Of a stretch of DNA of 64,000 nucleotides, positions 13,950-59,541 are shown in pieces; the first letter of the stretch is position 1, and every line of letters begins with the position of its first letter. This DNA comes from Elusimicrobiota bacterium (GTDB lineage Bacteria; Elusimicrobiota; JBDRON01). The position numbers and the translations under genes are program-made. The stretch lies in assembly GCA_043810025.1 (NCBI GenBank), contig JBDRON010000033.1:3431-67430 (forward strand), in the 5' to 3' direction. Under the pieces are notes generated by a model that made no database searches, was not told the DNA's origin, and saw nothing but the letters and a program-made list of their open reading frames with translations.

Positions 13950-13975
13950 CTCATAATGCTACAATATAAATCCTT

Positions 13976-22051: not shown

Positions 22052-22936
22052 AATTTTAAAACCTTTAAACACCAAAGATATTGGTCGGTAGAGATAGAGG
22101 AAAGGAAGCATTAAACAGGAAGATTGATACCGGCGAAGAACGAAGACCGGCGCAGGGAAAAGAAATTTTATCAGAAAATTTAGCTTAAAGAAAAAACCGG
22201 GAATAATCATCGGGCGAAGCAAATGCCCGATATCGCCCACCGGAGCGGAACGCCAAACCCGCGATAAGATTTTTTTTTGCCAACCGGGAATTTTGACCCA
22301 ACTAAGCCGTTCGATAGAGGTAGTAATTTTTTCACACAATTCATCAGAAAACCCCACCTCTATTTTTTGTACCCTGGTCAGAACCTCCCGCAGCGAAAAA
22401 GCCAAATTGTATAACTTGGCCTGCCGATACAATTCTTCCCAATCTAAATTATATTTTTTAATGATCAGAGCGCAATCCATCAGCCATTTATCCTCTAACC
22501 AACCATGATGAATCGCCGCGTGAGCCACAATAAAAATCAGGTTATCCTGAGGACCAAGGCTCCGGGCCTCCACCCCGTCGATTTCGAACAGAAGCGCCCG
22601 GGACCAAAGTTGTTCCAGATTTTTTTTACTCAGGTACCAAATTTCCGTATGCAAATCGATGGCCACCGGACAGCCGGGGCGAATAAAATTCAACTCCCCG
22701 CAGGGTAGAACCTGATAGTTCAGCCGCGCTAAAACCCGTTCAATGTCCGGAAGATCTTTTTTCTGAATTAACAAATCCAGATCGTCTATTGGACGCAGGC
22801 CGGGAGCATAAACTGTTTCCCTTAACGCCGCCCCCTTCAGCACAATGGATTCAATCGCATCTTTGGCAAACTCCCCCAGCAATTCCCTAACTTGCCAGTC
22901 AATCAGAAGCTCCCGGCCGATATCTTCCCTATTCAT
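22001..22936 (-). CDS. Nucleotidyltransferase-fold protein (PF14907-like uncharacterised NTase)
   Basis: VLKGAALRETVYAPGLRPIDDLDLLI carries the G[SA]...DxD pol-beta-type motif. It lies 19 nt downstream of the PorV-like gene. Confidence 0.6.
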   Translation of the reverse strand: MNREDIGRELLIDWQVRELLGEFAKDAIESIVLKGAALRETVYAPGLRPIDDLDLLIQKKDLPDIERVLARLNYQVLPCGELNFIRPGCPVAIDLHTEIWYLSKKNLEQLWSRALLFEIDGVEARSLGPQDNLIFIVAHAAIHHGWLEDKWLMDCALIIKKYNLDWEELYRQAKLYNLAFSLREVLTRVQKIEVGFSDELCEKITTSIERLSWVKIPGWQKKILSRVWRSAPVGDIGHLLRPMIIPGFFFKLNFLIKFLFPAPVFVLRRYQSSCLMLPFLYLYRPISLVFKGFKILFQCFLSPRPLGPLIP

Positions 22937-47900: not shown

Positions 47901-50900
47901 CGTAAACCCGCGCGGAAACATAATTGGCGCCTTGCTGGGCAGCGCTGAAATCCAGCGGCCAATCCGCGGCAAAACTTGCGACGTTGATGTTGACGGCGAT
48001 ATCCGTCCAGGTTTTCAACTGCGTGCCGGTTTGCCCGGCCGCCGTCCAGATCGTATACTGGGCGGTAGCCAGCAGCGCCAGGGTATCGGCAAAATCAATG
48101 TTGTAAGTTGTGCCGGCGGCTCTCCGCCAGGTATCGTCACCGGTCTGATTATCGGTGATCGAGGGGGTGGTTGTGTCTTTTAAAACATAAAAAACATCGG
48201 CAACCGTCGCGCTGACCCCCGCGGCATCATAAGCCCGGACCGAAACATAATTGGTTCCTTCCCGGCAGGCCGCAAAATCAACCGGCCAATCGGTTGGATA
48301 ACTGCCGGCATTGATATTGGCGGCGATATCCGTCCAAGCCTGATAAACCACCCCTCCTAACCCGGCAGCGCTGCGCACGGTATACTGAACATTGCTGAGC
48401 AAAGAACCGTTGTCGGCAAAATCCACATTGTAAGTTGTCCCGGCGGCGGCCCGCCAACTATCATCACCGGTCTGATTGTCGGTAACCGAAGGAATAATCG
48501 TATCTTTTTTTAGATAGAAAACATCGTTAATCGTGGTTAGATTGCCCGCCTGATCGTAAACCCGAACGGAAACATAGTTGTAACCTTCCTGACCGGCCGT
48601 AAAATCAATTGCCCAATCCGCGGTGTAACTGTCGGCATTAATGCCGGTGGCGATATTCGTCCAGCCTTTTAACTGACTGCCGCTCAAACCGGCGGCCGAA
48701 TAGACGGTATACTGCGCCGAACTGAGGAGGGAAGCGCCGCTGTCCTGAAAATCTATGTTATAAGTTGTCCCGCCGGCCGAACGCCAGGCATCATCGCCGG
48801 TTTGATTATCCGCCACCGTCGGCGAAGAAAGATCAACTGTTGTCGAGCTTTCCGGGATAGCGCTGGAATCGGGGCCGGCCTCGTCGGTATTGCCGGCGTT
48901 ATCTTCGGCAATGATCTTAAATCCGTAAATATTTTCGGCGCCGGCGGTAAAAGCGATGGGCGAAGCGGTAAAGGTTGTCCCATATTGCCCCCAGGTATAG
49001 GGGACACCCGTCTGGGTAGTATAATAAAGTTTTACATTTTTTAACTGTGAACCGCCGCTGTCGCCGGCCGCATAAAGAAGATTGAAATTAGTTGTGTTAC
49101 TATAAGCCGGCGCCAAGGCGCTGCCGCTGGGCGGGGTGGTATCTTTGCGCACATAAAAACCATCGGTTAAAGCAGTAGTATTTCCCGCTTGATCGAACAC
49201 CCGCACGGAAACATAATTCGTTCCTTCGCCTAAAAGCTCCCAACTGCCCGAGACTAACGCCCAATCACTTGTGTAACTCACCGCGCCTATTCCGGAAACT
49301 ACCGTCGTCCAGTCCTGAAGCAGTGTGCCGCTGCCGGCCGCGCCGCTGCTAATTTTTGTCTGGAAATAGGACAATTTAGCATCATTGTCGGCAAAATCCA
49401 GGTTATAAGTTGAGCCGCCGGTTTTGCGCCAGGCATCGTCGCCGGTTTGCTGATCAATGATCGCCGGCGGCGTGGTATCTTTGAGCACATAAAAGGCATC
49501 GGTCAATGAACCGCTGTTCCCGACGTTGTCAAACACCCGGACCGAAACATAATTTTTTCCCGTCATCAGATTAGCCCAAACCGCTGAACTCAAGGACCAA
49601 TCCGCGGTATAGGAATCGGAGGCGATATTTTCGCCGATTGTCGTCCAATCGTTAAGCAAAACGCCGGATTGCGCCGGCCCAGAAGTAACTTTCACCTGGA
49701 AGTGCGACAATTGCGATGTTCCGCTATCGGCAAAATCCAGATTATAGGCCGCCGTATTATCCTTGCGCCAGGTATCGTCACCGGATTGGTTATTGGTTAA
49801 TGTCGGCGCGCTTGTATCTTTCTTTACATAAAATACATCCGTCAGACCGGCGCTGTTGCCCGCCCGGTCATAGACGCGCACGGAAACATAATTTGTTCCT
49901 TGCAGACAACCGGCAAAATCCAGACTCCAATCAGTGGTATAACTGTTAGCGTCAATGTTGGCGGCCAAAGTAGTCCAGGTTTTGACCGCTGTCCCCCCCA
50001 ACGTCGGCTGGGACCAGAGACAATACTGCGCATAATCCAACAGCGCCCCGCCGCTGTCCTGAAAATCAATATTATAATTTGTCCCGGCGCTGTTCCGCCA
50101 AGTGTCGTCACCTAACTGGTTGTCGGTAATGGCCGGCGCCGTCAGATCTTTTTTTACATAGAAGACGTCTTCTGTTATGGTAAAATTACCGATTCCGTCA
50201 TAACTGCGCACAGAAACATAGTTAGTCGTTCCTTCCTGGCAAGCGCTAAAATCTATCCCCCAATTGGCGGTGTAATCACTGGCGACAATCCCTACAGCAA
50301 TATTCGTCCATGTTTTCTGCTCCGTTCCCGTCCGGTTCGGTCCGCTCCAAATGGCATATTGAACCGTCGTTAAGAGAGATAAATTATCCTGAAAATCAAC
50401 ATTGTATGCGGTTCCGGCAGCCTTCCGCCAGGTATCATCGCCGCTCTGGTTATCCACGGTCACCGGTCCGGAAGTATCTTTCTTGACATAAAATACATCT
50501 TCAACAGTAGTGGTAGAGCCGGCTAAATCCCAAACCCGCGCCGAAACATAGTTATAGCTGCTGAGACAAGTATCAAAATCCAGCGCCCAATCGGCAGTAT
50601 AACTGCTGTTCCCGGAAACAGAACCGATAGCGGTCCAATCTTTCACCAGCGCTCCACTGCGATTTAACCCGCGATAAACCGTATATTCGGCCCCGGCCAG
50701 TTTCGAGCCGACATCGCCAAAATCAATATTGTAAACTGTGCCGCTAACCTTTCGCCAGGTATCGTCACCGCTCTGATTATCGGTCATTGTCGGCGGGGCA
50801 GTATCTTTCCAAAGGTAAAAAACATCGTTAGCAGTTTGACTGCTGCCGGCGTGATCCCAAACCCGCACCGAAATATAGTTCGTTGTCCAGCTGACCAAAT

Positions 50901-53900
50901 TGTTCCAGATACCGCCGGTTAAAGCCCAATCATTAGAGTAAGCGCCGGCGTTAATCCCGCTGATCACTTCCGTCCAGTCCTGCACCACCTGACCACTGCC
51001 CGCTGTTCCCGTCGCCGCCCGCACCTCAAAATAATTAAGCAGAGAACCGCCGCTATCATTGAAGTTGATATTGTATGTTCCGTCGTTGCTAGTGCGCCAA
51101 ACCGCATCGCCGCCCTGCTGATCGTCAATCGTCGGCGCGGTAGTATCTTTTTTTACATAGAATACATCGTCCAGTTCCGCAGTATTCCCGGCCCGATCGT
51201 CAGCGCGCACTGAAATATAGCCGGTCACCCCTTCGCTGAGCGCAGCAAAATCAATCCCCCAGTTGCCGGTATAACCGCTGCTGTTCACCGAGGCGGCAAG
51301 ATCTGTCCAATCCTTGACCAGGCTTCCCGTTTTACCGGTTTGAGTGTAGATGGTGTATTGCAGGTTGTTCAGTAAAGATAACCCGTCGGCAAAATCAATA
51401 TCGTAAAGAGCGGCGGTTTTCCGCCAGGTATCGTCGCCAGACTGGTTGTCGGTAATTACCGGCGGGGAAGTGTCTTTTTGCACATAAAAGACATCGGTCA
51501 CCGAGGTGCTGCTGCCGGCAGTATCGAAAACCTTCACGGAAATATAATTGGTTCCCGGCTGGAGCAAATCCCATGTAGTGGACAACAGCGGCCAATTATC
51601 GGTGTAGTGACCGACGTTGATGTTGGAAACAACCGTCGTCCAATCCTCTAAAACCGTCCCCCCCTGGTTAGGCAGAGTGTTCACCTTGGTTTGAAAATAA
51701 TTGAGCAAAGCCGTATCGCTATTGGAAGAAAAGTCAACATTATAGACGCCGTTATTGATTGTTCGCCAAGTATTGTCACCGCTCTGGTTGTCGGTAACCA
51801 CCGGCAGGCCGGCGGCTTTGATCAGATAAAAGACATCTTCCAGTGTTTGGGAATTGTTCGCGTTATCAAAAACTTTTACGGAAACATAATTTTGACCTTG
51901 CTGACAAGCGCCGAAATCAATCCCCCAATTGTCGGTGTAACTGGCCGCATTGATACTGCCGGCTAGATCAGTCCAATTTTTTAACCGCGTCCCACCCTGT
52001 CCAACGTCCGTGCATATCGTATATTGAATATTTTTCAATAACGCCCCGCCGGTATCGGCAAAATCAACATTAAAGATGTTACCGGGATTGGTATTGTATT
52101 CCGTATCGTCACCGCTTTGCAGGTCGGTAATCGTCGGTGTAGTAGTATCCATTTTTACATAAAAGAGGTCATTGAGGCTGGAAATATTGCCGGCGTTGTC
52201 GGCGGTGCGCAGACTGATATAATTTGTCGCTGCCTCCCGCAAAACCGCAAAATCAATTGACCAATCCGTGGTGTAACCGGAATTATTTAAACCGCTAAAA
52301 ATATTTGTCCAGTCTTTCAGTTGATCGCCGGTTTGCTGGCTGCCGGAGTAAATCGTATATTGCGCATAATCCAGCAGGGAGTTGCTATCGTTGAAATCCA
52401 GATTATAAACAGCGCCGGCCGCCTTTTGCCAAGTGTCGTCGCCGCTTTGATTATCCACAATCCCCGGCAAGATGGAATCTTTTTTCAGATAGAAAACATC
52501 GGTGGTTGTACTCTGATTGCCTAAATTGTCCGTGGCCCGCGCGGAGATATAGTTTATTCCCTGCTGACTGGAAACAAAATCGATCGTCCAGGGCGTATTA
52601 TAAAGCGCGGTACCGGCCGAGGTAAAAATATTCGTCCAATCCTTGCGCAGACTACCCGTTTGACCGGGGCCGGTCCAGATGGAATACTGGGCGGAAGACA
52701 ACAGGGAGTGGGCATCCTGAAAACTGACATTGTAAGCGGTCCCGCCGAAACGGCGCCAACTGTCATCACCGGTCTGACTGTCAATGATGGTTGGCACAGC
52801 GGTATCTTTTTGGATATAAAAAGCATCGGTTAGGGAAGCGCTGTTCTGGGCATGATCGAACACCCGCACGGAAGCATAGTTCCTGCCCGCGGCTAAACTC
52901 GTCCATAAATCAGTGGGCAGTGGCCAGTCGGCAGTATAAGAATTAGCAGCAACATCTCCCAGCACCGTCGTCCAATCCGTAATTAAAGCGCCGGTTTGGC
53001 CGGGACCGGTGGTGATTTTTAACTGAAAATAATCCAACTGCGCACTGCCGGTATCGTTAAAATCAATATTGTAAGCGCCGTCGTTTTGTTTTCGCCAGGC
53101 ATCGTCACCGGTTTGATTGTCGGTGATCGTCGGCGCGGCGGTATATTTTTTCAGATAAAAAACATCGTTAAGAGTGGAAAGATTATTGCCGTTGTCGGTT
53201 ACTTTTACCGAAACATAATTGAGGCCTCCGGCGCAGGCGCTGAAATCAATCGGCCAATCCGCCGCGTATTCGTTATTATTCAGATTAGTAAAAATGTCCG
53301 TCCAATTTTTTAAGGTTGTGCCGCCCTGCGCCGGCAGACTGTTAACTAAATATTGCGCCGAAATCAACAGTGAGCCGCCGCCATCTTGAAAATCCACATT
53401 ATAAACCGCACCTTCGCTGTTCCGCCAAGTATCGTCACCCAACTGGTTGTCGCTAATCTGCGGGACGGTAACATCTTTCAAAACATAAAACACATCGTTG
53501 ACGGTGGCGGTATTGCCTGCCCAGTCGAAAGACCGCACGGAAACATAATTGGTTGTCCCTTCGGCGCAGGCGGCAAAATTTATCGGCCAGGGCACCGAAT
53601 AACTGTCGGCATTAATGGCGATGGCGATATCGGTCCAACCCTGCAATTGACTGCCGGTTTGATTTACATCGCTAAAAATAGCGTATTGCGCGGCGGATAA
53701 TTGGGAAGCGCCGGAAACATCGTTGAAACTTACCGTATAAGTTTTACCGGCCGCTTTCTGCCAGACCGTATCGCCGTTTTGGTTATCGGCGATGGTCGGG
53801 GTGGTGGTGTCCTTCAACAGATAAAACAGATCAGCGAGAGTAATGCTGGAACCGGCCCAGTCAAAAACACGGACGGAAACATAGTTGTAACCATCACTGC

Positions 53901-56900
53901 AGGCGGTGAAGTCAACTGCCCAATCCGTCGTATAACTATTGCTGTTAATATTGGCGGCGATATCCGTCCAATCTTTTAAAACCGCTCCGGCCTGCGCCGG
54001 CAATTTGGTAATTTTATACTGGGCGTTGTTGAGCAAGGCTCCGCCGCTGTCCTGAAAATTAAGATCATAAACTGTTCCGCCGGTTTTGCGCCAAGTGTTA
54101 TCGCCGGATTGATTATCGGTGATCGTCGGCACGGTGGTATCTTTCAGCAGATAAAAAACATCGTTGTTTTCCGCACTGATGTTGCCGGCCTGGTCGGCCG
54201 CCCGCGCCGAAACATAACCGGTTGCTCCCTCCCGCAAAACATTCCAACCAGCCGCCGGTAACGGCCAATTGTTGGTATAACTGCTATTATTTATACCGCT
54301 GACCACCGTCGTCCAATTTTGCAAAACTTCTCCCGACTGCGCCGGACCGGTAGTAATTTTGATCTGGAAATAGTCGAGGTTAGACCCGCCGCTGTCGGCA
54401 AAATCAATGTTGTAAGCGCCGTCGTTAATCCGCCGCCAGGTCGTATCGCCGGATTGCAGGTCATTGACCGTCGGAGAAGTAGTATCCTTCTTTACATAAA
54501 AGACATCGTTGACGGCGGCGCTGGAACCGGCCCAATCAAAAACACGGACCGAAACATAATTGTACCCTTCCTGACAGGCGGTGAAATCCACACCCCAGTC
54601 GGCGGTGTAGTCATTGCTGTTAATATTAGCGACAATATCCGTCCAATCTTTATAAATTGCCCCCCCCTGATTGGACAACTGAGTGATTTTATACTGGGCA
54701 TAGTTGAGCAATGAATCGCCGCTATCCAGGAAATTTACATCGTAAACATCCCCACCGGTTTTATGCCAGACATCATCGCCGCTCTGGTTGCCGGCGATGG
54801 CCGGCGCCGAGGTGTCTTTTAAAACATAAAAAACATCGTTGGTTTCGGAGCTGAGATTGCCGGCCGCATCGAGAACACGCACAGAAACATAATTGGTTAC
54901 CCCTTCTCTCAAGGTGTCCCAGCCGGAACTAGGCAGAGACCAGTTAGCAGTATAAACACTGTTGTTAATCCCGCTGATCACCGTCGTCCAGTTTTGCAAG
55001 ACTTCGCCCGATTGACCAACACCGGTAGTGATTTTGATTTGAAAATAATCCAGGTTGGAGCCGCCGGTATCGGCAAAATCAATGTTGTAAGCGCCGTCGT
55101 TGATCCGCCGCCAGGTTGTGTCACCGGATTGAAGATCAGTGATGGTTGGAACAGTAGTATCTTTCAGCACATAGTAGCAATCGTTAACCGTGGTCGTGTT
55201 GCCGGCCAGATCGTAAACTTCCACGGAAACATAGTTGGTTGCCCCTTCCAGACAAGCCTCAAAATCTACTGACCAATCGGTCGTAAAACTTGTCCCGCCG
55301 ACCGTAGGAATCGCCGTCCAATCCTTGCGCAATGCGCCGGTTCGGTTGAGATCGGTATAAATCGTATATTTAGCCCCGGCTAACCGCGAAGCCGAATCGA
55401 GAAAATTTACATTGTAAACGGCGCCGGCGCTTTTTTGCCAGACATCGTCGCCGGACTGCAGGTCTTCCACCGTCGGGGTTGTGGTGTCTTTAAGCAGATA
55501 GAAACAATCGTTGAGGGTAGTATTATTTCCCACTTGATCAAAAACCCTCACACTGACATAGTTGGTTACGCTCTCCTGTAAAGCGGTCCAACTACCGGCA
55601 ATTAAAGACCAGTCTGTCGTATAAGTATTGCCGGACAAACCGCCGGCTTGAGTAGTCCAATCTTGCACCACTATGCCGGACTGGGCAGCGCCGGTCGTAA
55701 TTTTCGTTTGAAAATAACTGAGACCGCTGCCGCCGCTGTCCTGAAAGTCAATGTTGTAGACGCCGCTGTTGGTTTTCCGCCAAACCGTATCACCGGCCTG
55801 CAGATCGGAGATCGCCGGAGTAACAGTATCTATCAACACGGAAAATGTTGATGTCCAGTTACAATAATTATTCGCTTGGTCATAAGTTCTTACCCGCCAA
55901 TAATAAAGATTAGTATTCAAACCGGTCGAAGCGGCCTGCGAGAGGGCCGGACTGGAACTATAGGTGATAGTCGTAAAATCGGCAGCAGTAGCCACTTGTA
56001 ATTCATAGCGGTCGAGCGTTGACCCGCCGCTGTCGGTGGAGTCCGACCAGTCGAAACTGACGGTTTGATTGCTCTGTTTGGCGCCATTGGTGGGGGTCAG
56101 CAAAGTGGGAACAGTCGGCGAGGAAAGATCACAGCCAAAATCCCCTTCCGTTTCCAGATTCCCGCCGAAGGATGCCCAGCCGCTTGTTCCCCCCGTACCG
56201 GAAAGACGGGCCTGCCAGTGATAAGTCGTTCCCGAAGTTAGGCCGGAAATACTCACACTCCCGGCCGCCGCCGGACTGGTAGAATAATAAACCACCGCTG
56301 AGCCGCTATCAGTCGGGGTATTGGTAAAACCGGTTCCCACCGCTCTCACTTCGATTTGCGGCGTTAAGGTATCGGACAGGCGCGGGCTGGTCATCGGCAA
56401 TTTTAAAACGAGATTGTTTTGGTTCGTCCAACTGCCGGTGGAAATAATGGTTGCGCCATCGGATTTATATTGTGTTAGATTCGTCGGGGTATTAGGGATG
56501 GCGATACATTCATAAACAACGGAACCGAGACCGGTAAAGTTGGCCTGATTGGCGGCGATACTGTAATTAGCGGTTACCTGCGAACTGGCTTCAGTAATCT
56601 GACCGACGTTTTGATAAAAGCGGCTCGTCCCGAAAGCCTCGCTGGTCGTGCGGGGATTAACAATTTGGGACCCGGAACCGTTAAAATCAACAGAGGTGGT
56701 AGTATTTTGAGTGATCGTGTTTTTATTATTGGATTGTGTATAATTCATCTTCAACCAGGCCATCCGCAAACTTTTACTGCCCGGAGCAGGAAACCAAAGC
56801 GGCATCGTAGGAGAAAAACCGGCCGCGATACCCGAATCGCTTTGTCCGGCAAAAGTTTGATAATAATTTGTATAGTCCGCCTCATTGGTATAATCATAAG

Positions 56901-58215
56901 TAACCACCAGTTCTACACCGCAAGCGCCTAAAGCATCGGGAGCGGGCGGCGCGGCATAGCTGACGGCAATTGTTGAACCGTTTACCCAGTAACCGGCTTG
57001 CAAGGTCAAATCATGCAATAACGACCAGCCGGAAATTCCGATGGATTCCGCGCGCAGACGATACAAGGTTTGCGTCAAGGAAATTCCGTTGACACTGGCC
57101 TCAACCGGCAGATCTTGACCGGTAGTCGAGTTATAGGAACCAATCATCCGGGCATAAAGACGACGGATGGTAATTCCCGCCTCATTTAAATAAAGCGGCA
57201 GACTAAAACCGGTATCCACCGCCGCATCGGAGGCCTGACCCAAAAAATAGCTGATCGTTTTCGTATGGGTGGAAGCGCTGACCGAATATTCGTAAGTGAC
57301 CAGACATTCTCCGCCAAGCAAATTGATTGTTCCGGCGGCGATAATCATGTTAAAAGTTTGATCGGTATTCACCGCAAAACCGGCTAAACCGGCGTTTCCC
57401 TGATGATCAATAAACAGGAACTCGTAGGAATCAATCAAAGAACCGTCCAAGGTCATCGTCTGACTGTTCGCCGTATTATTGACATTGACCGTAATCGTCG
57501 TATCCGTAGTGGCCGCGCCCGACTGCCGGAAACCGCGCGCCTCAAACCACTGCTGACGAACGGTAAATTTCGGATCACCCAACAACGCTTCGGCAATTTC
57601 CGCCTTATAACCAAACCCATAGGTGCCGGCCGGCGACTCGCTATTTTTTGAAGCCAAACCGTTAGCTTTGTCCCAGTAAAGCGGGAAACGAACCGTTTTA
57701 ATCTGGATGGCCGAGGTATCGTCATATTCGTAGGTAATATATAATTTTAGGGTATGGGTGTTGGAAGTCGGCCCGACAATTTTTGCGCCGGCGGAAAACA
57801 GGGAGGATGTGGTCGTATTCAGGTCGAAAACACTGCCCAAGACGGAAGTCACATCCGCCCGGGCAACAATTTTTCGGGATTCACCGGTAGTATCATCGAA
57901 TTGACCGGTGATCGGGTCGCGCGCCGTGGAAGCAGCTGCCCCTTGATCAAAAAGCAAATCAACATTCGTCGTATCCGCCGAGGAACACCCCAAGGCCTCC
58001 AATTCCAAAATCGCGCTGCGGATCACCCGGACAGCGCCCGTCTCCGGCAGATGGACCGTAAGGGAAGCCGGCAGCCAGTTAGTATTGGAAGCCAAATCCG
58101 CAACGTTATAATACGACCCAAAACTGTACTCGACAGTTTTGATCCGTGTCGCCGCAGTCAGAGATAAATTCCATCCCCAAACCAGCGCCCCGATAAACAG
58201 AAATATTTTTCTCAT
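29998..58215 (-). CDS. Giant secreted repeat protein (9,405 aa): signal peptide, about 58 tandem ~106-aa Ig-like repeats, duplicated FN3 pairs + Trp-rich propeller-like blocks, two lamin-tail domains, C-terminal PQQ-like beta-propeller
   Basis: A single uninterrupted 28,218-nt ORF. The N-terminal signal peptide is MRKIFLFIGALVWGWNLSLTAATR. The repeat unit is conserved in DNQ[ST]GDDTWR..YN[IV]DF.D...[DN]WT...NYVS[VA]R..D.AGN...DVFY[VL]KKDT. The lamin-tail motifs are LNEIYLSG...EDWIELYN and INEIGYG..QEFIELYN. The C-terminal blades have the form YFG.DDG.LY..D...G. Confidence 0.85.
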   Translation of the reverse strand: MRKIFLFIGALVWGWNLSLTAATRIKTVEYSFGSYYNVADLASNTNWLPASLTVHLPETGAVRVIRSAILELEALGCSSADTTNVDLLFDQGAAASTARDPITGQFDDTTGESRKIVARADVTSVLGSVFDLNTTTSSLFSAGAKIVGPTSNTHTLKLYITYEYDDTSAIQIKTVRFPLYWDKANGLASKNSESPAGTYGFGYKAEIAEALLGDPKFTVRQQWFEARGFRQSGAATTDTTITVNVNNTANSQTMTLDGSLIDSYEFLFIDHQGNAGLAGFAVNTDQTFNMIIAAGTINLLGGECLVTYEYSVSASTHTKTISYFLGQASDAAVDTGFSLPLYLNEAGITIRRLYARMIGSYNSTTGQDLPVEASVNGISLTQTLYRLRAESIGISGWSLLHDLTLQAGYWVNGSTIAVSYAAPPAPDALGACGVELVVTYDYTNEADYTNYYQTFAGQSDSGIAAGFSPTMPLWFPAPGSKSLRMAWLKMNYTQSNNKNTITQNTTTSVDFNGSGSQIVNPRTTSEAFGTSRFYQNVGQITEASSQVTANYSIAANQANFTGLGSVVYECIAIPNTPTNLTQYKSDGATIISTGSWTNQNNLVLKLPMTSPRLSDTLTPQIEVRAVGTGFTNTPTDSGSAVVYYSTSPAAAGSVSISGLTSGTTYHWQARLSGTGGTSGWASFGGNLETEGDFGCDLSSPTVPTLLTPTNGAKQSNQTVSFDWSDSTDSGGSTLDRYELQVATAADFTTITYSSSPALSQAASTGLNTNLYYWRVRTYDQANNYCNWTSTFSVLIDTVTPAISDLQAGDTVWRKTNSGVYNIDFQDSGGSGLSYFQTKITTGAAQSGIVVQDWTTQAGGLSGNTYTTDWSLIAGSWTALQESVTNYVSVRVFDQVGNNTTLNDCFYLLKDTTTPTVEDLQSGDDVWQKSAGAVYNVNFLDSASRLAGAKYTIYTDLNRTGALRKDWTAIPTVGGTSFTTDWSVDFEACLEGATNYVSVEVYDLAGNTTTVNDCYYVLKDTTVPTITDLQSGDTTWRRINDGAYNIDFADTGGSNLDYFQIKITTGVGQSGEVLQNWTTVISGINNSVYTANWSLPSSGWDTLREGVTNYVSVRVLDAAGNLSSETNDVFYVLKDTSAPAIAGNQSGDDVWHKTGGDVYDVNFLDSGDSLLNYAQYKITQLSNQGGAIYKDWTDIVANINSNDYTADWGVDFTACQEGYNYVSVRVFDWAGSSAAVNDVFYVKKDTTSPTVNDLQSGDTTWRRINDGAYNIDFADSGGSNLDYFQIKITTGPAQSGEVLQNWTTVVSGINNSSYTNNWPLPAAGWNVLREGATGYVSARAADQAGNISAENNDVFYLLKDTTVPTITDNQSGDNTWRKTGGTVYDLNFQDSGGALLNNAQYKITKLPAQAGAVLKDWTDIAANINSNSYTTDWAVDFTACSDGYNYVSVRVFDWAGSSITLADLFYLLKDTTTPTIADNQNGDTVWQKAAGKTYTVSFNDVSGASQLSAAQYAIFSDVNQTGSQLQGWTDIAIAINADSYSVPWPINFAACAEGTTNYVSVRSFDWAGNTATVNDVFYVLKDVTVPQISDNQLGDDTWRNSEGAVYNVDFQDGGGSLLISAQYLVNSLPAQGGTTLKNWTDIFTNLNNNEYAADWPIDFSACAGGLNYVSVKVTDNGNNLSTLNDVFYLKKYTAAPTITDNQTGDDAWRKQNDGAYNIDFNDTGSAQLDYFQLKITTGPGQTGALITDWTTVLGDVAANSYTADWPLPTDLWTSLAAGRNYASVRVFDHAQNSASLTDAFYIQKDTAVPTIIDSQTGDDSWRRFGGTAYNVSFQDAHSLLSSAQYSIWTGPGQTGSLRKDWTNIFTSAGTALYNTPWTIDFVSSQQGINYISARATDNLGNQSTTTDVFYLKKDSILPGIVDNQSGDDTWQKAAGAVYNLDFNDSNSLLDYAQYTIYSGSQQTGDQLKDWTNIFSGLNNSGYTTDWSIDFAVLREAATNYISLRTADNAGNISSLNDLFYVKMDTTTPTITDLQSGDDTEYNTNPGNIFNVDFADTGGALLKNIQYTICTDVGQGGTRLKNWTDLAGSINAASYTDNWGIDFGACQQGQNYVSVKVFDNANNSQTLEDVFYLIKAAGLPVVTDNQSGDNTWRTINNGVYNVDFSSNSDTALLNYFQTKVNTLPNQGGTVLEDWTTVVSNINVGHYTDNWPLLSTTWDLLQPGTNYISVKVFDTAGSSTSVTDVFYVQKDTSPPVITDNQSGDDTWRKTAALYDIDFADGLSLLNNLQYTIYTQTGKTGSLVKDWTDLAASVNSSGYTGNWGIDFAALSEGVTGYISVRADDRAGNTAELDDVFYVKKDTTAPTIDDQQGGDAVWRTSNDGTYNINFNDSGGSLLNYFEVRAATGTAGSGQVVQDWTEVISGINAGAYSNDWALTGGIWNNLVSWTTNYISVRVWDHAGSSQTANDVFYLWKDTAPPTMTDNQSGDDTWRKVSGTVYNIDFGDVGSKLAGAEYTVYRGLNRSGALVKDWTAIGSVSGNSSYTADWALDFDTCLSSYNYVSARVWDLAGSTTTVEDVFYVKKDTSGPVTVDNQSGDDTWRKAAGTAYNVDFQDNLSLLTTVQYAIWSGPNRTGTEQKTWTNIAVGIVASDYTANWGIDFSACQEGTTNYVSVRSYDGIGNFTITEDVFYVKKDLTAPAITDNQLGDDTWRNSAGTNYNIDFQDSGGALLDYAQYCLWSQPTLGGTAVKTWTTLAANIDANSYTTDWSLDFAGCLQGTNYVSVRVYDRAGNSAGLTDVFYVKKDTSAPTLTNNQSGDDTWRKDNTAAYNLDFADSGTSQLSHFQVKVTSGPAQSGVLLNDWTTIGENIASDSYTADWSLSSAVWANLMTGKNYVSVRVFDNVGNSGSLTDAFYVLKDTTPPAIIDQQTGDDAWRKTGGSTYNLDFADNDAKLSYFQTKISSGAAGSGTLLQDWTTVVSGIGAVSYTSDWALVSGSWELLGEGTNYVSVRVFDQAGNTTALTDGFYVRKDTTPPSGSALAPAYSNTTNFNLLYAAGDSGGSQLKNVKLYYTTQTGVPYTWGQYGTTFTASPIAFTAGAENIYGFKIIAEDNAGNTDEAGPDSSAIPESSTTVDLSSPTVADNQTGDDAWRSAGGTTYNIDFQDSGASLLSSAQYTVYSAAGLSGSQLKGWTNIATGINADSYTADWAIDFTAGQEGYNYVSVRVYDQAGNLTTINDVFYLKKDTIIPSVTDNQTGDDSWRAAAGTTYNVDFADNGSLLSNVQYTVRSAAGLGGVVYQAWTDIAANINAGSYPTDWPVDFAACREGTNYVSVRAYDAAGVSATVADVFYVLKDTTTPSITDNQTGDDTWRRAAGTTYNIDFADTLALLATAQYTIWTAAGQTGTQLKTWTDIAVNINVASFAADWPLDFSAAQQGANYVSARVYDRAGNQQTANDLFYLKKDILAPSIIDNQLGDDTWRSSAGNTYNVTLNDSGGSLLSVFQYTINTAANRSGTILKDWTNIAGDINNSVYSALWGVDFNSCLQGVNYVSARAWDVAGSTTTTADVFYVKKDTSGPVIIDNQTGDDIWRKAGGTVYNIDFNDPEVWLDSAEYTINSAAGQGGTVLKTWTLIAGDINSADYTADWGVDFAAGQEGTNYVSVRAFDKLANSTTTNDIFYFLKDTVGPTAINNLSASTALEGEISLSWTATGDNGASGTAASYVVKYATFQFTDQNSFEQAAAFAQSWTPLPPTNGETQTISGLTADTTYYLAIEVVDKAGNRSSLSNTSGNWCKSGADATLPGTINDLAAVTGDFAGQVNLSWTAPGDNGLVGDLQAPPNGRYALKYSAASSISSEVAWTTAQTFAQNWAPMTAGVTENRTVTGLTNGTLYYFAVRAYDEANNLSNLSNSPSASAGLPGMAEGMLVYGSASSANPQYRLWLGSNWDDYQYSAQAAASVVRWTRLEACPTVRNEKMLGALSYDGTAAPDGDLYLQRWDGVNSNWVDLGRMNTTLGTIYSAYRGFDLAYEQLSGRCLAAYFNGTGAQITYRVWSSTAAAWAAGPTNLSLPGLTGAVYWLKLTPRPADNGIMLTAMDVNLNIYSIYWNGSAWVNGRTNASAGAANAAYQCFDAAWENTAGRCLALWGTGSRITTYDIYSPTAGSWPIIAQSGPNINAKNNAGWIKMAADPTSSRIGFTSMDADSDWNVSIWDGSDWGALPLEDASAIGPTGRTTDIAWGKDNGLCLVAAVDAAASQFSYLGWSSVLGWHNPVTLVAAVPNTAPKDTLVWTGNLRWVTLNPDPNTNKIFLSGISISGDLRSRIWTGSSWSGGALHSSAVSDYSYECAAVVSSKHDAAPPTLADNQTGDDTWRKSNTVNYNIDAEDSGGSQLLKIQTKIYTQPNNVGQLLEDWTTQVNNIGANSYTADWPLIANTWNALVSGNNYVSVRAQDNAGNFSSALIDAFYVRKDTIPAIVADLQSGDTTWQNTAGKVYNLDFQDLHSTLNGAKYTIYTEVNRSGQLRKDWTTIPAVSGSAFTADWPVDFSACLEGAANYVSVEAYDLAGNTATVNDCFYVLKDTSPPTITALQSGDTTWQNTAGKTYNGDFYDTGGSRLNYVQYRICTGPSQTGQLRKDWTTIAANINVNSYTADWPIDFSACLEGATNYVSARAYDWAGSSVSLNDCFYLLKDVHEPTIIDNQTGDLNWRTAGGTTYNVDFQDSGGSLLNYAQYKICSAAGGGGTTLVDWINIAANISTTTYTTDWAVDFSSCQAGANYVSVRAYDWAGSSVSLTDAFYIRKDTDVPSIIDNQTGDDTWRTAAGTVYNLDFQDSGSLLNNLQYTIYSGANRSGSQLKDWTDIAANVSASAYTTDWPVDFSACREGATNYVSARADDYAGLSAIAEDVFYVKKDTTVPTVTANQTGDDTWRTAAGTTYNIDFQDSGSLLDYAQYSLWTQPNQTGNNLKTWTNIAADINNSNYTADWSIDFNVGQQGTNYVSVRLADKAGQLTGQNDLFYVLKDTSVPTISDLQSGDDIWRTAAGSAYNVDFNDLGSLLSSVQYTIYSAAGLTGTQLKTWTDIAANINAGSYTTDWPVDFTACQQGTSYISVRADDNAGQSTQLNDCFYVKKDTSSPTVVDNQTGDDSWRTTAGTTYDIDFQDSGSLLSLAQYTIYSAAGRTGTQLKTWTDIAAGINNSAYTANWTVDFNSCQQGYNYVSVRVYDQANNFTIADDVFYVKKTTSPPVIIDNQSGDDTWRKSGSTVYNLDFQAQGSALLDYAQYTVWDAPAQTGNQLKTWTNIATAINASVYTTDWPLDFAALSEGVTNYVSARVFDQAGISAAGNDLFYVKKDVSLPGLTDNQLGDDTWRSQAGSVYDIDFQDSGGSLLNNLQYAIYSQAGKTGTLYQDWTNLAGAVNASSYSTNWPVDFTACREGLNYVSVRVDDWAGNSSELADCFHIYKDTSAPTIDDQQGGDDLWRITNNGIYDINFNDTGGSQLSYFQVRAATGTAGSGQVVQDWATLAGNIGAASYSTDWALSSGIWDNLVSWTTNYISIRIYDRAGNSQTLNDCFYVLKDTAAPTISDNQSGDDNWRAAGGTVYNIDFGDVGSRLAGAEYTINSGVNRTGTVLKDWTTAAAVAGNSSFTADWAIDFGACSAGPNYVSARVWDTAGSTTTANDLFYVKKDTFGPTISDYQTGDDTWRKVSGTTYNVDFLDSLSLLATAQYAIWTGLNRSGTELKSWTDIASGINNSGYTANWGVDFDACQQGTNYVSARVYDNLSNLTTGDDCFYVKKDTTSPTITDNQSGDDTLRSAPGTVYNVDFQDSGGSLLSYAQYTIWAGPGRTVGEIKTWTNIVTAINSNSYTNDWEIDFNGCQQGYNYITVRVFDGAGGSVEGVDVFYVRKAAGAPSIVDNQLGDDTWRKTNVAAYDIDFFSNSGANLSYFLSKVCSAAGQSGTVIEDWTTVVSAIGSTQYSANWSLLNAAFDKLLPGRNYVSLRILDEAGNTTTVSDVFYVQKDTVTPTITDNQSGDDTWQTAAGKTYDVDFADNHSLLNYAQYTIWGDVNRSGSLLKDWTNIAGAINAAGYTANWPVDFAGLPETATGYVSVRVFDNLLNCTTSNDVFYILKDTTTPTITDNQTGDDAWRTAAGTTYNVDFADLRSLLTTAQYTIYSVAGLGGSKLKDWTAIASSINSASYTADWPVDFPACGQGANYVSVKVFDRAGNSAQLNDCFYVKKDTAVPAITDNQTGDDAWRTAGGTTYDVDFTDLGSLLTTAQYTIYSLAGQTGVQLKDWTDIAVSIGTTSYTANWPIDFTAGQQGNNFVSARVYDGVGNSAEAIDVFYVKKDTSGPTVIDNQTGDDTWRNSGGTVYNVDFQDNGSLLNYLQYSIYSGPNRTGTLLKTWTNIAAGLNASNYTADWAIDFSACAAATTNYVSVQAYDNLNNSTIAEDVFYVLKDLTAPGISDNQLGDNSWRNSGGTTYDVDFQDSGGSFLNNAQYTIWSAAGQTGTQRKTWTNIAGSINSNSYTTNWPIDFDSAVDGENYISVRVDDRAGNSAGLDDVFYVKKDTTSPVLTDNQSGDDSWRSNNTSVYNVDFQDSGGSLLSSFQTKLTTGTAQSGTVLEDWTTQISGINAAGYTTDWPLSAASWEALLTGGTSYVSVRVFDGAGNAATVNDVFYVKKDTAAPTVTDNQSGDDIWRKTAGTVYNLDFQAGASALLSSAQYTIYSAANRAGTQIKDWTDIAAGINVGAYTADWPVDFDACREGTNYVSVRVYTYSGASGSADDVFYVKKDTTSPTITDSQSGDAAWRNNSGTVYNVDFADLSSQLTTAQYLIYDSAGQTGNKLKDWTDIAGGINAAGYTTNWPIDFTACNEGTNYVSVRAFDLAGNSGSANDVFSVLKDTTVPVIQDNQSGDTVWRRSNNAVYNLDFFDSGGSLVSYFQTKLTTGPAQSGTALQDWTTQVSVINGASYTTDWSLLDPSWQALRSGPTNYLAVRLYDQAGNSAVLNDPFYIWKDTITPTITDNQPGDDVWRKAVGTVYNIDFADSGGSLLNKAEYIIYRAAGQSGQLLKDWTGIAGVSGTSYTADWTLDFDSCQEGENYVSVRSSDTAGSLTTLTDAFYVRKDTTAPTIQDLQAGDTSWRRLNDGLYNVDFADLGGSLISYFQTKLTSAPAQSGTVRQDWTTQVSAINNSGYSADWPLVNSSWLALISGSTNYAALRVYDLAGNSSSLNDPFYILKDTITPTIDDQQSGDDAWRRAAGTAYNVNFNDSGGSLLEKAEYTIWSAAGQTGSLLKDWTVIANNINNSAYTADWTIDFAGANQGTNYVSARTNDLAGSTTSQNDVFYLKKDTVGPTITDAQTGDDTWRAAAGTIYNIDFADYGIGLSTVQYRIWSAPGQSGSLVKDWTDIAAGIGAAAYTTDWPVDFAGCLGGTTNYVTVRAYDVLASSTTGVDVFYVLKDTVAPSAIANLAAAAGNFAGKINLTWTASGDDAGAGQSVSYLLKYKTGSNFTGEADFTIAATYYQTLSPKSSGGSESYTLTGLMEGATYYLALKAVDKAGNQGTISNLTGNSAWAAITPPRQITDLAAMTGDYVGQIKLTWTAPGEDEATGNLAAPPSGGYVLKYSTTAAVTAGNWNTAAAYTQSWEPLPVSSLEEKVLANLTATTTYYFALKAYDDLPSYSSISNSTGAVAAPPGAASGMLVFGQGTQIAPRYNLWDGASWGGEQSGQNASATINWVVVKACPLLRNEKMLGVLSSDGKLTIQRWNGANLTWTTEWQTTTIGVTNAVYRGFDIVYEEVSGNCLVVYNDNAANPVYRRWTGSSWEGPLSLSVLTTGIPIWVRLAVRPAANEALLVTLDTNSDIHSIRWTGSAWDTANRRTNTATAAVSAKQCFDLVWEALSGRCLVLFGSGTGTTYDIWNSVTTSWVTVGGVGPAIAAIANWLKLAADPASNKIGMASLDGSLHWNVSIWSGSAWGALPADNTAMDSVAGRGVDIAWEKDSGRCLAVGVKSGANYFSYILYNGTAWQQTPSAPLNDSYTWSSNIRWLRLLPDPNTVKMTVVGIDTGNDIRSRNWSGSAWTGGTIHETNSSTALYECAMIALDRHDISPPSLSDNQYGDDTWRCSNVAAYDVDFLDSGGSKISYFQTKITSQPNQAGTVLQDWTTQVSGINANSYTTNWPFLTTAWNALQQGANYVSVRVFDGVGNSVDRTDVFYVKKDVGLPGVTDNQTGDDTWRNSGGTVYNVDFADNLSLLATAQYTLNSAVARSGTVIKNWTDIAANIGAAGYTTDWAIDFVTAQQGINYVSVRVYDNAGNLNTVDDVFYLKKDTQTPAAVADLAANPGETRGKIVLTWTAPGDDGVSGNNTLGGYQVRYSTGGVINAGNWDTAGVWLNSWAPVSAGSTESRVITGLTLGKTYYFALKTYDKANNLSSISNGTAGALPREENVYLNEIYLSGSTGAEDWIELYNNTPNPISLNGWQLVYNQGSIALPGAESVVWTGGVAETINSGGLLVIVPNTNLDNGQSYHLKLKDNIASLVDIVQYPAINGAGISFSRIYDGSAYWEKDPTTTKNLLNVAGGTIKINEIGYGIVSQEFIELYNNSAAKQALTNWTLRNSQGANTIVPYRRQFQFSLNIDTYSFSGLNFSSTDNSANQYSYPACFGAGGLDSNSDFLVLENSSGQAVDRVSWQSGANYYYDYQAGLIPYPGTAPGGVVSGSIGRYPNEGTDTDLDAADFANFAQTGEGAKNNVGVPASANTFTYPVNSTALPRRFNLTLTLGEDSSGGYTDNLTFTRTGGSADLHSPHRFKLANLGFTLNNLTAQTTTVAGALILDEDGYGLIDGAVYRLNLNSDTASGPAPAIVLNNVTYDGSIPAVSAVNTALPRLNNGKRGSMLRLRVTNNSANNNLEIEQIKVRFTDPDLAPLTTLEAQNLFAQLLICADDQENGAAGIYEYAIDVSTLAVLANAGISLDGAGAQTFNVVSPDSVAAIVNPSSYRDYFVIAELTADATDQTPCSFRASITAGADLVLRDGASDVSQSINPTAAVNSSSTTASVPVLPPPDTSWPYSAGTSTGSAISSTIGLGYDSAYNQVAIYAGTEDKRLLAMNPDGTAKWTQPFVSSGSITSAINSTVETAGTFVYFSDNAGFIYKLKDNITSGTTNGGGWSRELGAVVNSAIQIVGENMFIGCNDNKVYKININDGNNVLGWAPPTLNGALSSSPSIDEYTDGVNACWIGSDGGRIYRMQSGDGTATSWFDTGGPVRSAPFIDSGGVHATSNNLYITSSDGKLYCRTSSNLTGTPSGWVDFDCGSPIDTSVWLTPNPEADGKKYLYFGADNGKLYKVDAASGTLAWSCQTGGPIKSSPVDDGYGYVYFGSDDGNIYCLAVADGSLRSGWPVNTGATVRSMPVIDTEFNRLYIGSSDGKLYVLDITP
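35910..45190 (-). repeat. Coding tandem repeat array 2 of giant gene (about 29 copies of ~318 bp; approximate bounds)
   Basis: Same unit as array 1. It is bounded by the two FN3-pair + Trp-rich block units, at about 45190..47190 and about 33975..35910. Confidence 0.8.
47190..55832 (-). repeat. Coding tandem repeat array 1 of giant gene (about 27 copies of ~318 bp; approximate bounds)
   Basis: The KDT...DNQ.GDD boundaries recur every ~106 aa. Copies are divergent at DNA level. This is protein-coding, not CRISPR. Confidence 0.8.
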
Positions 58216-58294
58216 ATTTACTTGCTAATTGAGCATTTCCAGCACAATAAATGTTTAGCATAGATTAGCCAATTTTTCAATGTGTTTTTTGACA

Positions 58295-58732
58295 CTAAAA
58301 TTTTCGAAAAAGAGGCTGGATGAGGCTGCGGCTGAACCAAAAGATTGTTTTGATTATCCGGCTATAAACTAATCCCAGCCGGCCTTTAGAGAGAAAATGA
58401 TTAGCGGTCAGCCGGCCGATAACTTCTTTAAAATCAACTTTGTGTAAACCAACTATCCCCGTATCATCATTGACCATAAAACTATTTTCCTGCTTCTTTT
58501 CCACCCGATGCAAAAAATATTTTCCCCCGCTGCGATACAAAATACAATCGCCGGGTTTAATTTTGTCCATTCCCACCGGCTCGACAAAGACCAGTTCCCC
58601 ATTTTTCAGCAGCGGCCGCATACATCCGCCGCGGGTAAAAAAAGGGATCAACATCCTTGAACCCACTTGAATCGGCTGGGATAATTTTTTATTTGCTTTC
58701 ATGGGAGAGGGGGCGCCAGAATAATTTTCCAA
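58295..58732 (-). CDS. S24/S26 (LexA / Sec11-SipW-type signal peptidase) fold peptidase-like protein with Cys and His at the predicted nucleophile/base positions
   Basis: FTRGGCMRPLLKNGELVFV aligns to the GSMEP box (Cys where the catalytic Ser normally sits). GDCILYRSGGKYFLHRV aligns to the GD...HRV/KRV box (His where S26A/S24 have Lys, as in Sec11/SipW). There is no obvious TM helix. It overlaps the HprK-like gene by 34 nt and ends 79 nt before the giant-gene start. Confidence 0.45.
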   Translation of the reverse strand: MENYSGAPSPMKANKKLSQPIQVGSRMLIPFFTRGGCMRPLLKNGELVFVEPVGMDKIKPGDCILYRSGGKYFLHRVEKKQENSFMVNDDTGIVGLHKVDFKEVIGRLTANHFLSKGRLGLVYSRIIKTIFWFSRSLIQPLFRKF

Positions 58733-59313
58733 AAAGCGCGGTGTCGGGTAAACTGCATTTCGTAAGCTGGAACTGCGGATAAAAAATCTTCCGCGATAAA
58801 AAAAATTTTTTCTAATAAATGTTTTTCGGAATTAAAGAACAAGAGGTTGGTTAAAAATTTTGGCAAGGACTGTTTCAAGGTGAGAGCGGACAAAATGTTT
58901 TTTTGTGATTTTACAGGAAAATATACGCCATTGACAGGAAAACTTAAGTTTTGCGCAGGCAAATCCAATTCACCGCTGAAAGGTGTGCTGTAAGCCCGAT
59001 ACTGCGTTCCGATTTTTCTTACGGCCACCACCTCGTCACTGAGGATAAAAGAACCGGCCGATAAGCGGGCAATCGTTGACTTGCCGGCCAGGGAAACCCC
59101 GGGGAAAAGATAAGCTTGTTCTTTTTTTACCACACCGGAGGAATGAATTAAAAACCCCTGTTCTTCTAAAAGCAAATAGGTATACAGTATTCTAAGAAAT
59201 GAATCGAAGGAATAAATATTTTTTTCGATCATTCCCTTACCTGTATGCTCAGCTAAATTAATTTCCACTTCAAAATCCCCACGCAAGACAATCAATTTTC
59301 CCTTTTTTAACAA
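58699..59313 (-). CDS. HPr kinase/phosphorylase C-terminal-domain-like P-loop protein (HprK-related kinase)
   Basis: LIHSSGVVKKEQAYLFPGVSLAGKSTIARLSAGSFILSDEVVAV matches the HprK catalytic-domain pattern H[AS]S.V...G.L..G.SG.GKS..A..L...G..L..DD.V.[IV]. It lacks the HprK N-terminal domain. Confidence 0.6.
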   Translation of the reverse strand: MLKKGKLIVLRGDFEVEINLAEHTGKGMIEKNIYSFDSFLRILYTYLLLEEQGFLIHSSGVVKKEQAYLFPGVSLAGKSTIARLSAGSFILSDEVVAVRKIGTQYRAYSTPFSGELDLPAQNLSFPVNGVYFPVKSQKNILSALTLKQSLPKFLTNLLFFNSEKHLLEKIFFIAEDFLSAVPAYEMQFTRHRAFWKIILAPPLP

Positions 59314-59541
59314 TATTTGCGGAGCGATTTCATCGGTATTAGACTTGTTTTTTTTGCGTTAAATTGAATTTTCCAGTTTGCCGTTTGGGGGGAAGAAAAG
59401 TTTTTGTAGCGTTGAGATAAAAGGCGATAGAATTTTAGTTCGGGGGTAGAAAAAACCGGATTTATCTCAGCAATATTCAATGAAAGTTTGTAGTCCATTT
59501 TACTACTGCCGATTATAGCAAATTTTTTCAAAAAACAAAAT

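Follow-up and report, generated by a model that had tools for sequence, protein, structure and literature searches.

The stretch of Elusimicrobiota DNA considered here (64,000 nucleotides, positions 3,431 to 67,430 of contig JBDRON010000033.1 in assembly GCA_043810025.1; hereafter, the window) carries on its minus strand a gene for a giant secreted protein and, immediately upstream, two short genes for a peptidase-like and a kinase-like protein. It is this gene pair that we sought to place. The giant gene, encoding 9405 residues at 29998..58215, is defined by the open reading frame (ORF) list and by BLASTP matches to its orthologues; the same list confirmed that the two upstream ORFs overlap each other, run in the same orientation and lie 79 bp from the giant gene. 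The original prediction had tentatively read the pair as a dedicated module for the giant protein or for downstream T9SS cargo, and the motifs from which it started, HSSGV...GVSLAGKST, GGCMRP and FLHRV, are all found in the window proteins. Our analysis leads, with moderate confidence, to a different reading: the pair would be two components of a cassette for the maturation of a peptide resembling those that are made by the ribosome and modified after translation (RiPPs), a cassette that is split in the window.

The minus-strand ORFs preceding the giant gene are 58295-58732 (145 residues, TTG start), 58699-59313 (204 residues, TTG start) and 59307-59531 (74 residues), and two of these models require revision. 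For the peptidase-like gene, the true start is most likely the ATG at 58702, giving a gene at 58295..58702 that encodes 135 rather than 145 residues, because this ATG overlaps the stop codon of the upstream gene as ATGA and because the relatives P0001 and P0002 (88-89% identity) begin at the equivalent position; catalytic residue numbers below nonetheless follow the 145-residue ORF. The 204-residue ORF comprises only the C-terminal three quarters of a kinase-like protein whose N-terminus lies on the 74-residue ORF. Alignment of the window DNA with that of the related locus L001, together with the translations, shows that the window is one A short in an A-run (A8 at 59348..59355, minus strand, against A9 in L001), and this 1-nt deletion breaks what is an intact 269-residue gene in L001 into two ORFs. 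The repaired window gene, a member of the ScmC family of HprK/PEPCK-like P-loop proteins as described below, spans 58699..59498 and encodes ~266 residues; the homopolymer frameshift could stem either from the assembly or from a true mutation.

In a scan of 57900-60600 for promoters and terminators, the 79-bp spacer contained no promoter on the minus strand, nor did any terminator separate the peptidase gene from the giant gene, a result compatible with their co-transcription without being evidence for it. Across 54000-64000, GC content is ~50% within the giant gene as compared to 36-45% in the flanking genes, the pair included; the amino acid composition of the giant's repeats or a separate history of the giant gene may lie behind this contrast.

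A soluble peptidase-like and a kinase-like protein

An AlphaFold2 (AF2) model of the peptidase-like protein, built on 42 homologues, consists of a β-barrel (residues 21-108) followed by one long, amphipathic C-terminal helix, with a predicted local distance difference test (pLDDT) score of 89. The top Foldseek matches of this model are solved structures of the S24/S26 fold: SpsB (E=4.6e-4), the LexA C-terminal domain (CTD), UmuD′, the lambda cI CTD, SipA and SEC11C, with the LexA, UmuD and lambda cI matches at E ~3e-3. The fold that had been proposed by eye is thereby borne out. Matches to curated sequence models are present and remain below threshold: Pfam Peptidase_S24 (PF00717) was matched by the window protein at E=0.0016, 18.6 bits against a gathering score of 23.3, and the best curated match, TIGR02228 (sigpep_I_arch; E=1.8e-9, 37.6 bits against a cut-off of 51.85), covers residues 34-84 only. 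Several homologues carry precomputed PF00717 matches, and PGAP and JGI label some family members "S24/S26 family peptidase" or "signal peptidase I"; the fold assignment of this family is, in itself, not new. The breadth of the family depended on the search used. The single window peptidase as query retrieved no relative among GTDB representatives and a k-mer-based homology search with the 145-residue protein returned two close relatives only, while an exhaustive phmmer search collected 424 cluster representatives at E≤1e-3, most of them 100-145 residues long.

When a profile of the family was compared to all PDB sequences, SEC11A was the best match (E=4.6e-8), with the boxes GgsMrP, llHRv and kdDag of the family aligned to GSMEP (Ser56), IVHRV (His96) and KGDNN (Asp122) of SEC11A. 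Window residues Cys37, His75 and Asp90 fall on Ser56, His96 and Asp122, respectively, a catalytic placement that follows from the profile alignment and not from model geometry. The earlier by-eye alignment to the Sec11/SipW (S26B) boxes, which puts Cys in the place of the nucleophile and His in that of the general base, is thus upheld, the residue numbers Cys39 and His84 being corrected to Cys37 and His75. Over 182 near-full-length family members, the general-base His is present in all 182 and the Asp in 181, while the nucleophile position is occupied by Ser in 163 and by Cys in 19, with about eight Ser/Cys switches across a neighbour-joining tree. Cys is not, therefore, particular to the window gene; by these counts it is a recurrent minority state of a Ser-nucleophile family. 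Since Ser and Cys are the only residues found at this position, amid invariant flanking residues, the pattern is that of an active nucleophile. The S90C variant of Escherichia coli LepB stays active.

The absence of a transmembrane (TM) helix was also correctly anticipated: the maximum 19-residue Kyte-Doolittle mean of the window protein is 0.88, and 150 of 163 family members stay below 1.6. With neither a signal peptide nor a TM segment, the peptidase is predicted to be cytoplasmic. On profile and model evidence, the protein is a putative minimal peptidase of the S26B-like kind, soluble and with Cys as a naturally occurring variant of the nucleophile. It shares with the S26B enzymes (SEC11A/C, Sec11, SipW and archaeal signal peptidase I) the core fold, the GSMxP, HRV and (G)D boxes and, in its putative substrate, small residues at positions -3 and -1. 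It differs from them in lacking a TM anchor or signal peptide, in its length of ~105-135 residues with a C-terminal amphipathic helix, in being encoded in a RiPP-like cassette, and in the Cys nucleophile (GGCMRP here, and Cys in ~10% of relatives, against the Ser of GSMxP); its TIGR02228 score is below cut-off. S24/S26B-like domains are also found fused to NTP_transf_5 (P0112), to a GNAT acetyltransferase (P0117, P0145 and P0152) and to a prepilin N_methyl segment (P0066), suggesting that soluble S26-like peptidases form a broader family whose members are linked with tailoring enzymes.

The kinase-like partner is related to HprK by ancestry. Among NCBIfam models, the 204-residue ORF matched ScmC (TIGR04249) at E=5e-8 with 32.6 bits against a cut-off of 125, the intact L001 orthologue scoring 32.1, and HprK_rel_A (1e-3) and HprK_rel_B (4e-3; TIGR04352/04355) far below their cut-offs. 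In a scan at E≤1 of the Pfam copy used, neither Hpr_kinase_C (PF07475) nor the ScmC model PF27840 matched this ORF. Protein P0004 (ABII74_02975), identical to residues 16-204 of the window ORF, carries a precomputed PF27840 match, which by transfer of annotation places the window protein in the broader ScmC family; the distant homologue P0032 carries a precomputed PF07475. The AF2 model of the intact L001 orthologue (pLDDT 94.5) matched ATP-dependent phosphoenolpyruvate carboxykinase (PEPCK) at E ~3e-9 and HprK/P at ~3e-4. Throughout 44 homologues, a His, the Walker-A Gly, Gly-Lys and Thr (GxxxxGK[ST]) and an Asp are invariant, the Glu after this Asp being nearly so, and the window protein keeps every invariant residue (IHSSGV...GVSLAGKST...LSDE). 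The N-terminal ~95 residues form a different, β-rich domain in the model, and Pfam gave no Hpr_kinase_N match in the ScmC-like protein. The prediction of an HPr-kinase catalytic pattern thus stands as regards the P-loop, the His and Asp-Glu positions and the PEPCK/HprK fold, and fails as regards Hpr_kinase_C itself; the missing N-terminal HprK domain was rightly noted. As judged from motifs and model, the HprK-type P-loop ancestry is real, and the protein itself is not an HprK/P; its N-terminal domain differs.

A probable peptide-maturation cassette, split in the window

The context of the pair in other genomes points away from the giant protein and towards a small peptide. A conserved gene set was recovered at 64 species-level loci, these being GTDB species representatives found with an alignment of the precursor described below; absences arise partly from contig ends. 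Hidden Markov model (HMM) scans detected the S24-like gene at 61 of the 64 loci, directly after the precursor gene at 57; a PqqD gene at 61; a radical S-adenosylmethionine (radical-SAM)/SPASM gene, one per locus, at 55; ScmC at 53; and NTP_transf_5 at three. NTP_transf_5 adjoins ScmC in L012, L037 and L048. The loci are mostly from Elusimicrobiota, joined by a few from Acidobacteriota, one metagenome-assembled genome (MAG) labelled Ignavibacteria and one Armatimonadota MAG. In the gene tables of L003-L012, the recurring order is (NTP_transf_5) - ScmC - PqqD - small ORF (45-49 residues) - S24-like - radical-SAM/SPASM - Rrf2 - 396-residue gene - giant gene (4542 or 9395 residues). Among the arrangements closest to the window, L028, L014 and L013 show the order ScmC-PqqD-radical-SAM-precursor-S24-giant, and L076 shows, within its flank, the precursor-S24-giant part only. 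The gene content accordingly describes a cassette with conservation throughout Elusimicrobiota and occurrence in some Acidobacteriota. A search of the accessible literature found no paper describing it, which is not proof of absence; this peptide-maturation cassette is apparently undescribed.

Loci L005 and L007-L012 also share an upstream block composed of a GT2 gene, a ~840-residue protein with N_methyl (prepilin-type) and CarboxypepD_reg domains, a 170-residue N_methyl pseudopilin-like protein and a 430-590-residue protein that has no annotation, and in the same loci an Rrf2 regulator lies between the radical-SAM gene and the giant gene. No equivalent of the GT2/N_methyl block was seen in the window.

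The constant small ORF encodes a peptide of 45-55 residues with the consensus MKKKKxYEKPxxxxEK[IV]FETAALA-CGKCITGPxxQxxCKxLxKFS. The 68 unique homologues share YxKP...EK[IV]FET.AL[ASG]-CGK and a C-terminal Ser: in every one of the 68, Ala stands at -3 and Ala, Ser or Gly at -1 before the first, invariant core Cys, and Ser is the last residue. Small residues at -3 and -1 are the classic signal-peptidase pattern. A short precursor gene with a conserved leader thus adjoins genes for a PqqD-type RiPP recognition element (RRE) and a radical-SAM/SPASM enzyme, the gene combination of an RRE-dependent RiPP cluster, and modification of the peptide by a cassette of this RRE-dependent, radical-SAM RiPP-like type is predicted.

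The window holds the same parts at some distance from the pair. On the same (minus) strand, ~43-45 kb further down and within 13665-15246, lie a gene for a 90-residue PqqD-family peptide-binding (RRE-type) protein (14974..15246; Pfam PqqD, E=2.8e-15; HMM of the cassette PqqD proteins, E=3.4e-22), a gene for a 333-residue radical-SAM/SPASM enzyme whose start overlaps the PqqD stop (13976..14977; Pfam Radical_SAM and SPASM), and a gene for a 47-residue precursor-like peptide (13665..13808), recognised at E=2.3e-20 by an HMM from five cassette peptides. The peptide consists of MPKKKKPYKKPEIISEKILETTALA followed by CGKCWSVPPISQSACNSRKRLS, that is, MPKKKKPYKKPEIISEKILETTALACGKCWSVPPISQSACNSRKRLS in full, and is matched by no NCBIfam or Pfam family. 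The NCBIfam matches of the window radical-SAM enzyme (AhbD, GeoRSP, ScmE, MftC, PqqE and others) all fall below cut-off. At ~36 kb from the pair, an uncharacterised nucleotidyltransferase of the NTP_transf_5 type (22001..22936, minus strand; Pfam PF14907, E=2.7e-33) represents an accessory part of the cassette. These other members of the cassette, located at 13.7-15.2 kb and at 22.0-22.9 kb, had not previously been connected to the pair.

In the window, PqqD, radical-SAM and precursor genes are placed beyond the giant gene; judging from gene order, the lineage of the window, L001 and L002 has evidently lost this block from between ScmC and the peptidase. Just upstream of ScmC, at 59542-60390 on the minus strand, lies gene debris: a 153-residue ORF in which parts of two glutamate-synthase domains, GATase_2 and the central one, are put together (Pfam), and a 106-residue ORF that resembles, by eye, the C-terminus of type III glutamine synthetase and has no Pfam match. 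This debris is consistent with a rearrangement or deletion breakpoint. As part of the RiPP-cassette reading, and with the same moderate confidence, we consider that the cassette was rearranged in the window's lineage while ScmC and the peptidase were kept directly upstream of the giant gene.

The giant gene and alternative explanations

The cassette does keep company with the giant gene. The window giant shares 35-42% identity over more than 2000 residues (BLASTP) with ORFs downstream of the cassette in L012, L014-16, L022, L036, L056, L071, L073 and L076, and ~33% over the whole protein, rising to 41% over the N-terminal 700 residues, with the giant of L028; orthologous giant ORFs adjoin the cassette in at least 11 other species-level loci. 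Of the 47 loci that have enough flank, 35 show the start of a very large ORF no more than 5 kb downstream. The pair adjoins orthologous giants in related genomes, as the earlier proposal of a link would require, and its position immediately upstream of the giant is conserved in L001, L002, L013, L014, L028 and L076. Comparative evidence thus indicates that the linkage of cassette and giant gene is ancient and conserved within Elusimicrobiota; in Acidobacteriota, the loci with the cassette have no giant gene.

The giant protein carries a Sec-type signal peptide. Its N-terminus after the predicted signal peptide is conserved in distant orthologues (P0121, P0127, P0133 and P0063) as A[TV]R[IVQ]KTVE[YW].FG, and the conservation hints at a functionally important N-terminal module of ~700 residues that has no Pfam match. 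Beyond the giant gene lie a 1164-residue β-propeller/fn3 protein with a Por_Secre_tail sorting domain of the type IX secretion system (T9SS; 26364-29858, minus strand) and a PorV/PorQ-family outer-membrane protein with a PGF-pre-PGF-like tail (22955-24562, minus strand; NF033709, 178 bits); in L003, a UPF0164/PorV-like gene follows an S24-fused 879-residue BNR protein.

What might this linkage mean? One possibility, which we hold tentatively and consider rather unlikely, is that the modified peptide is functionally tied to the giant surface protein, which it might accompany or anchor, modify as a cofactor-like adduct, or control in its production as a signal. The system would then be a housekeeping, vertically inherited one, in the way that PQQ and mycofactocin serve as cofactors, and not an antibiotic, and in the clade with GG[S/C]MRP the soluble peptidase, with its natural Cys nucleophile, may have become directly coupled to the giant gene.

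The direct relationship put forward originally, in which the pair would serve the giant alone, as a module for processing or for regulation by phosphorylation, with the peptidase trimming the signal or pro-region of the giant and the kinase-like protein modifying or regulating it, is improbable. It draws on the conserved upstream position among orthologous giants described above, on the placement of the peptidase gene directly before a large ORF in all six Cys-variant loci, and on ORFs in which an S24-like domain runs in frame into the giant's signal peptide or into another large secreted protein (P0063, P0079/L003, P0121, P0127 and P0133). The fused ORFs are suggestive only. We do not take them as proof of coupling because at least one of them, P0063, holds a linker that is a repeat element read in frame: in L077, positions 1-900, the element (...VIASDRRERGNLN..SKGEIASV..L..D.KNELRHSL...) occurs upstream of the S24-like gene and again as an in-frame link from the S24-like domain to the giant signal peptide, creating a 6457-residue 'fusion' ORF, and a Y1 transposase gene follows the giant gene. 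Moreover, most loci have a radical-SAM gene, an Rrf2 regulator and another gene between peptidase and giant. The peptidase lacks a signal peptide or TM segment whereas the giant has a Sec signal, so that the two are expected on opposite sides of the membrane. Because the Acidobacteriota cassettes are giant-free, the peptidase is predicted to be cytoplasmic and its constant neighbour is the small precursor, which it follows at 57 of 64 loci, the giant does not appear to be the peptidase substrate. For these reasons, the assignment of the pair to the giant protein or to T9SS cargo is not supported in the form proposed, and a giant-processing function is probably wrong, or at best incomplete.

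It is quite improbable that the pair is instead a decaying remnant of rearrangement, comprising a frameshifted ScmC and a peptidase that is losing function through its Ser-to-Cys change. The 1-nt deletion that splits ScmC, the glutamate-synthase and glutamine-synthetase-like debris as a breakpoint mark, and the disruption of the cassette order seen in L028 and L014 would all fit such decay. Against it, ratios of non-synonymous to synonymous substitution (dN/dS) among the window, L001 and L002 are 0.18-0.47 for both genes (0.22 for the peptidase gene between window and L001), values which indicate that both the ScmC and peptidase genes are under purifying selection. The catalytic and invariant residues are all kept, the ScmC-peptidase-giant arrangement is intact in L001 with its full-length ScmC, Cys recurs in several lineages in which the motifs are otherwise intact, and the homopolymer frameshift is possibly an assembly error.

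Very improbable is a non-catalytic role for the S24/S26-like protein, as a chaperone or scaffold that aids assembly of a pilin-like or giant surface protein in the manner of SipA/LepA of streptococcal pili. SipA and LepA are small signal-peptidase-fold proteins encoded next to surface-fibre genes, both are found among the structural and sequence matches (4n31 and 4k8w), N_methyl pseudopilin genes lie upstream in canonical loci, and P0066 is fused to a pilin-like segment. SipA and LepA have, however, lost their catalytic residues and are membrane-anchored and extracytoplasmic, whereas the window family keeps a strict triad-like set, with Ser or Cys only at the nucleophile position and the near-invariant His and Asp of an active centre, and is unanchored and predicted to be cytoplasmic.

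We rejected two further candidates: a true membrane-bound signal peptidase acting on the giant protein, on topology, as there is no TM segment, and a LexA-like self-cleaving repressor, which the β-barrel fold, the soluble cytoplasmic character and the weak Pfam Peptidase_S24 match would recall, since LexA-type S24 proteins use a Ser-Lys dyad to cleave their own chain, whereas the window family has an invariant His in an HR box and a conserved Asp and lacks a DNA-binding or cleavage-site region.

A proposed maturation pathway and its relatives

Returning to the RiPP-like cassette, we infer a substrate, a cleavage site, a phosphorylation and a radical-SAM chemistry, starting from elements that are established: the fold, the conservation of the catalytic positions and of the precursor, the membership of the pair in the cassette, and its synteny with the giant gene. 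PqqD would bind the conserved leader (YxKP...EKIFET) and the radical-SAM/SPASM enzyme would cross-link the Cys-containing core. The S26B-like peptidase, through its Cys(Ser)/His/Asp centre, would cut after A-L-(A/S/G), right before the first core Cys; we propose this leader-peptidase role because of the small residues at -3 and -1 in all 68 precursors. ScmC would phosphorylate the invariant C-terminal Ser, as proposed from the Ser ending of all 68 precursors and from the activity of HprK-like kinases in lasso peptide pathways, where PadeK and PsmK phosphorylate the C-terminal Ser of the precursor (PMC6993621, PMC8498205). NTP_transf_5 could possibly decorate that Ser phosphate; in lasso peptides, the uncharacterised nucleotidyltransferase PsmN adds a hexose to it, and some transferases of this kind form a fusion with the leader protease (PMC6993621, PMC8498205).

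The resemblance to phosphorylated and phosphoglycosylated lasso peptides (paeninodin, with PadeK; pseudomycoidin, with PsmK/PsmN) thus extends to a PqqD-type RRE, an HprK-like kinase, a nucleotidyltransferase, a leader protease and a Ser-ending precursor. The features of lasso-type tailoring are found here as a C-terminal Ser in every precursor and ScmC at 53 of the 64 loci, kinase activity being predicted. The transferase-protease fusions of those pathways may have a counterpart in the S24-like::NTP_transf_5 fusion of P0112. In place of a lasso cyclase (the Asn-synthetase-like C protein) and a transglutaminase-type B2 protease, the present cassette has a radical-SAM/SPASM enzyme and an S26B-like peptidase; the gene tables of L003-L012 and the window contained neither a lasso cyclase nor a B2 protease.

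The nearest curated system is SynChlorMet (SCM). Both systems combine an HprK-like ScmC, a PqqD homologue and a PqqE-like radical-SAM/SPASM enzyme, and SCM models (ScmC TIGR04249, ScmD TIGR04248, ScmE/ScmF TIGR04250/04251) are the best or near-best named matches of the window proteins. The scores are, however, far under the equivalog cut-offs (ScmC 32.6 against 125, ScmD 24.4 against 100, ScmE 107 against 400 and ScmF 77 against 400), and SCM has two radical-SAM/SPASM enzymes, ScmE and ScmF, as compared to one here. The present cassette further adds an S26B-like peptidase and an obvious conserved precursor, and differs in its taxon and in its link to a giant gene; to our knowledge, no precursor is identified for SCM in the TIGRFAMs description.

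Several points weigh against the assignment of the pair to such a pathway. The activity proposed for every member rests on sequence and models, and the scores of the window proteins for TIGR02228, TIGR04249, ScmD/E and Pfam S24 are all below cut-off. The window ScmC gene is frameshifted, and its product may be inactive there; the cassette is split, so that the pair and the precursor need not be expressed together. The A-x-A site comes from matching a pattern rather than from mapping a cleavage, and the tight, ancient linkage to the giant gene is left unexplained by a plain RiPP model.

Other observations in the window concern genes apart from the cassette. Between an ABC transporter and a two-component system lies a gene for a 386-residue protein (19040-20200, minus strand) that matches bacterial eRF1-like (baeRF) families and, below cut-off, the NCBIfam 'AOC03_06830 family ribosome hibernation factor'. 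Mobile or toxin-antitoxin-type genes occupy the window margins at 9894-10376 (+), 60568-61116 (+) and 63264-63815 (-): a YhaV-family toxin, an ORF6N-domain protein and a DUF6036/DUF2204 nucleotidyltransferase that is antitoxin-like, with an MNT-type fold.

For the biology of Elusimicrobiota, the analysis exposes a phylum-wide peptide-maturation system whose precursor has no curated NCBIfam or Pfam family, and offers a candidate precursor class for ScmC-type cassettes. It also carries two lessons for annotation, in that ScmC was split by a homopolymer frameshift and the cassette was split across 45 kb. If the proposed pathway is true, a minimal soluble form of the ER/archaeal-type signal-peptidase fold would become a new leader-peptidase candidate, and the logic of an HprK-like kinase paired with a C-terminal Ser would reach from lasso peptides to a radical-SAM/SPASM pathway. 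The natural interchange of Ser and Cys at the nucleophile is relevant to both protease evolution and RiPP engineering. The persistent linkage of the cassette with the giant gene is the most intriguing aspect, and this conserved tie to a ~9400-residue surface protein offers a tangible way to study how giant proteins of bacteria work.

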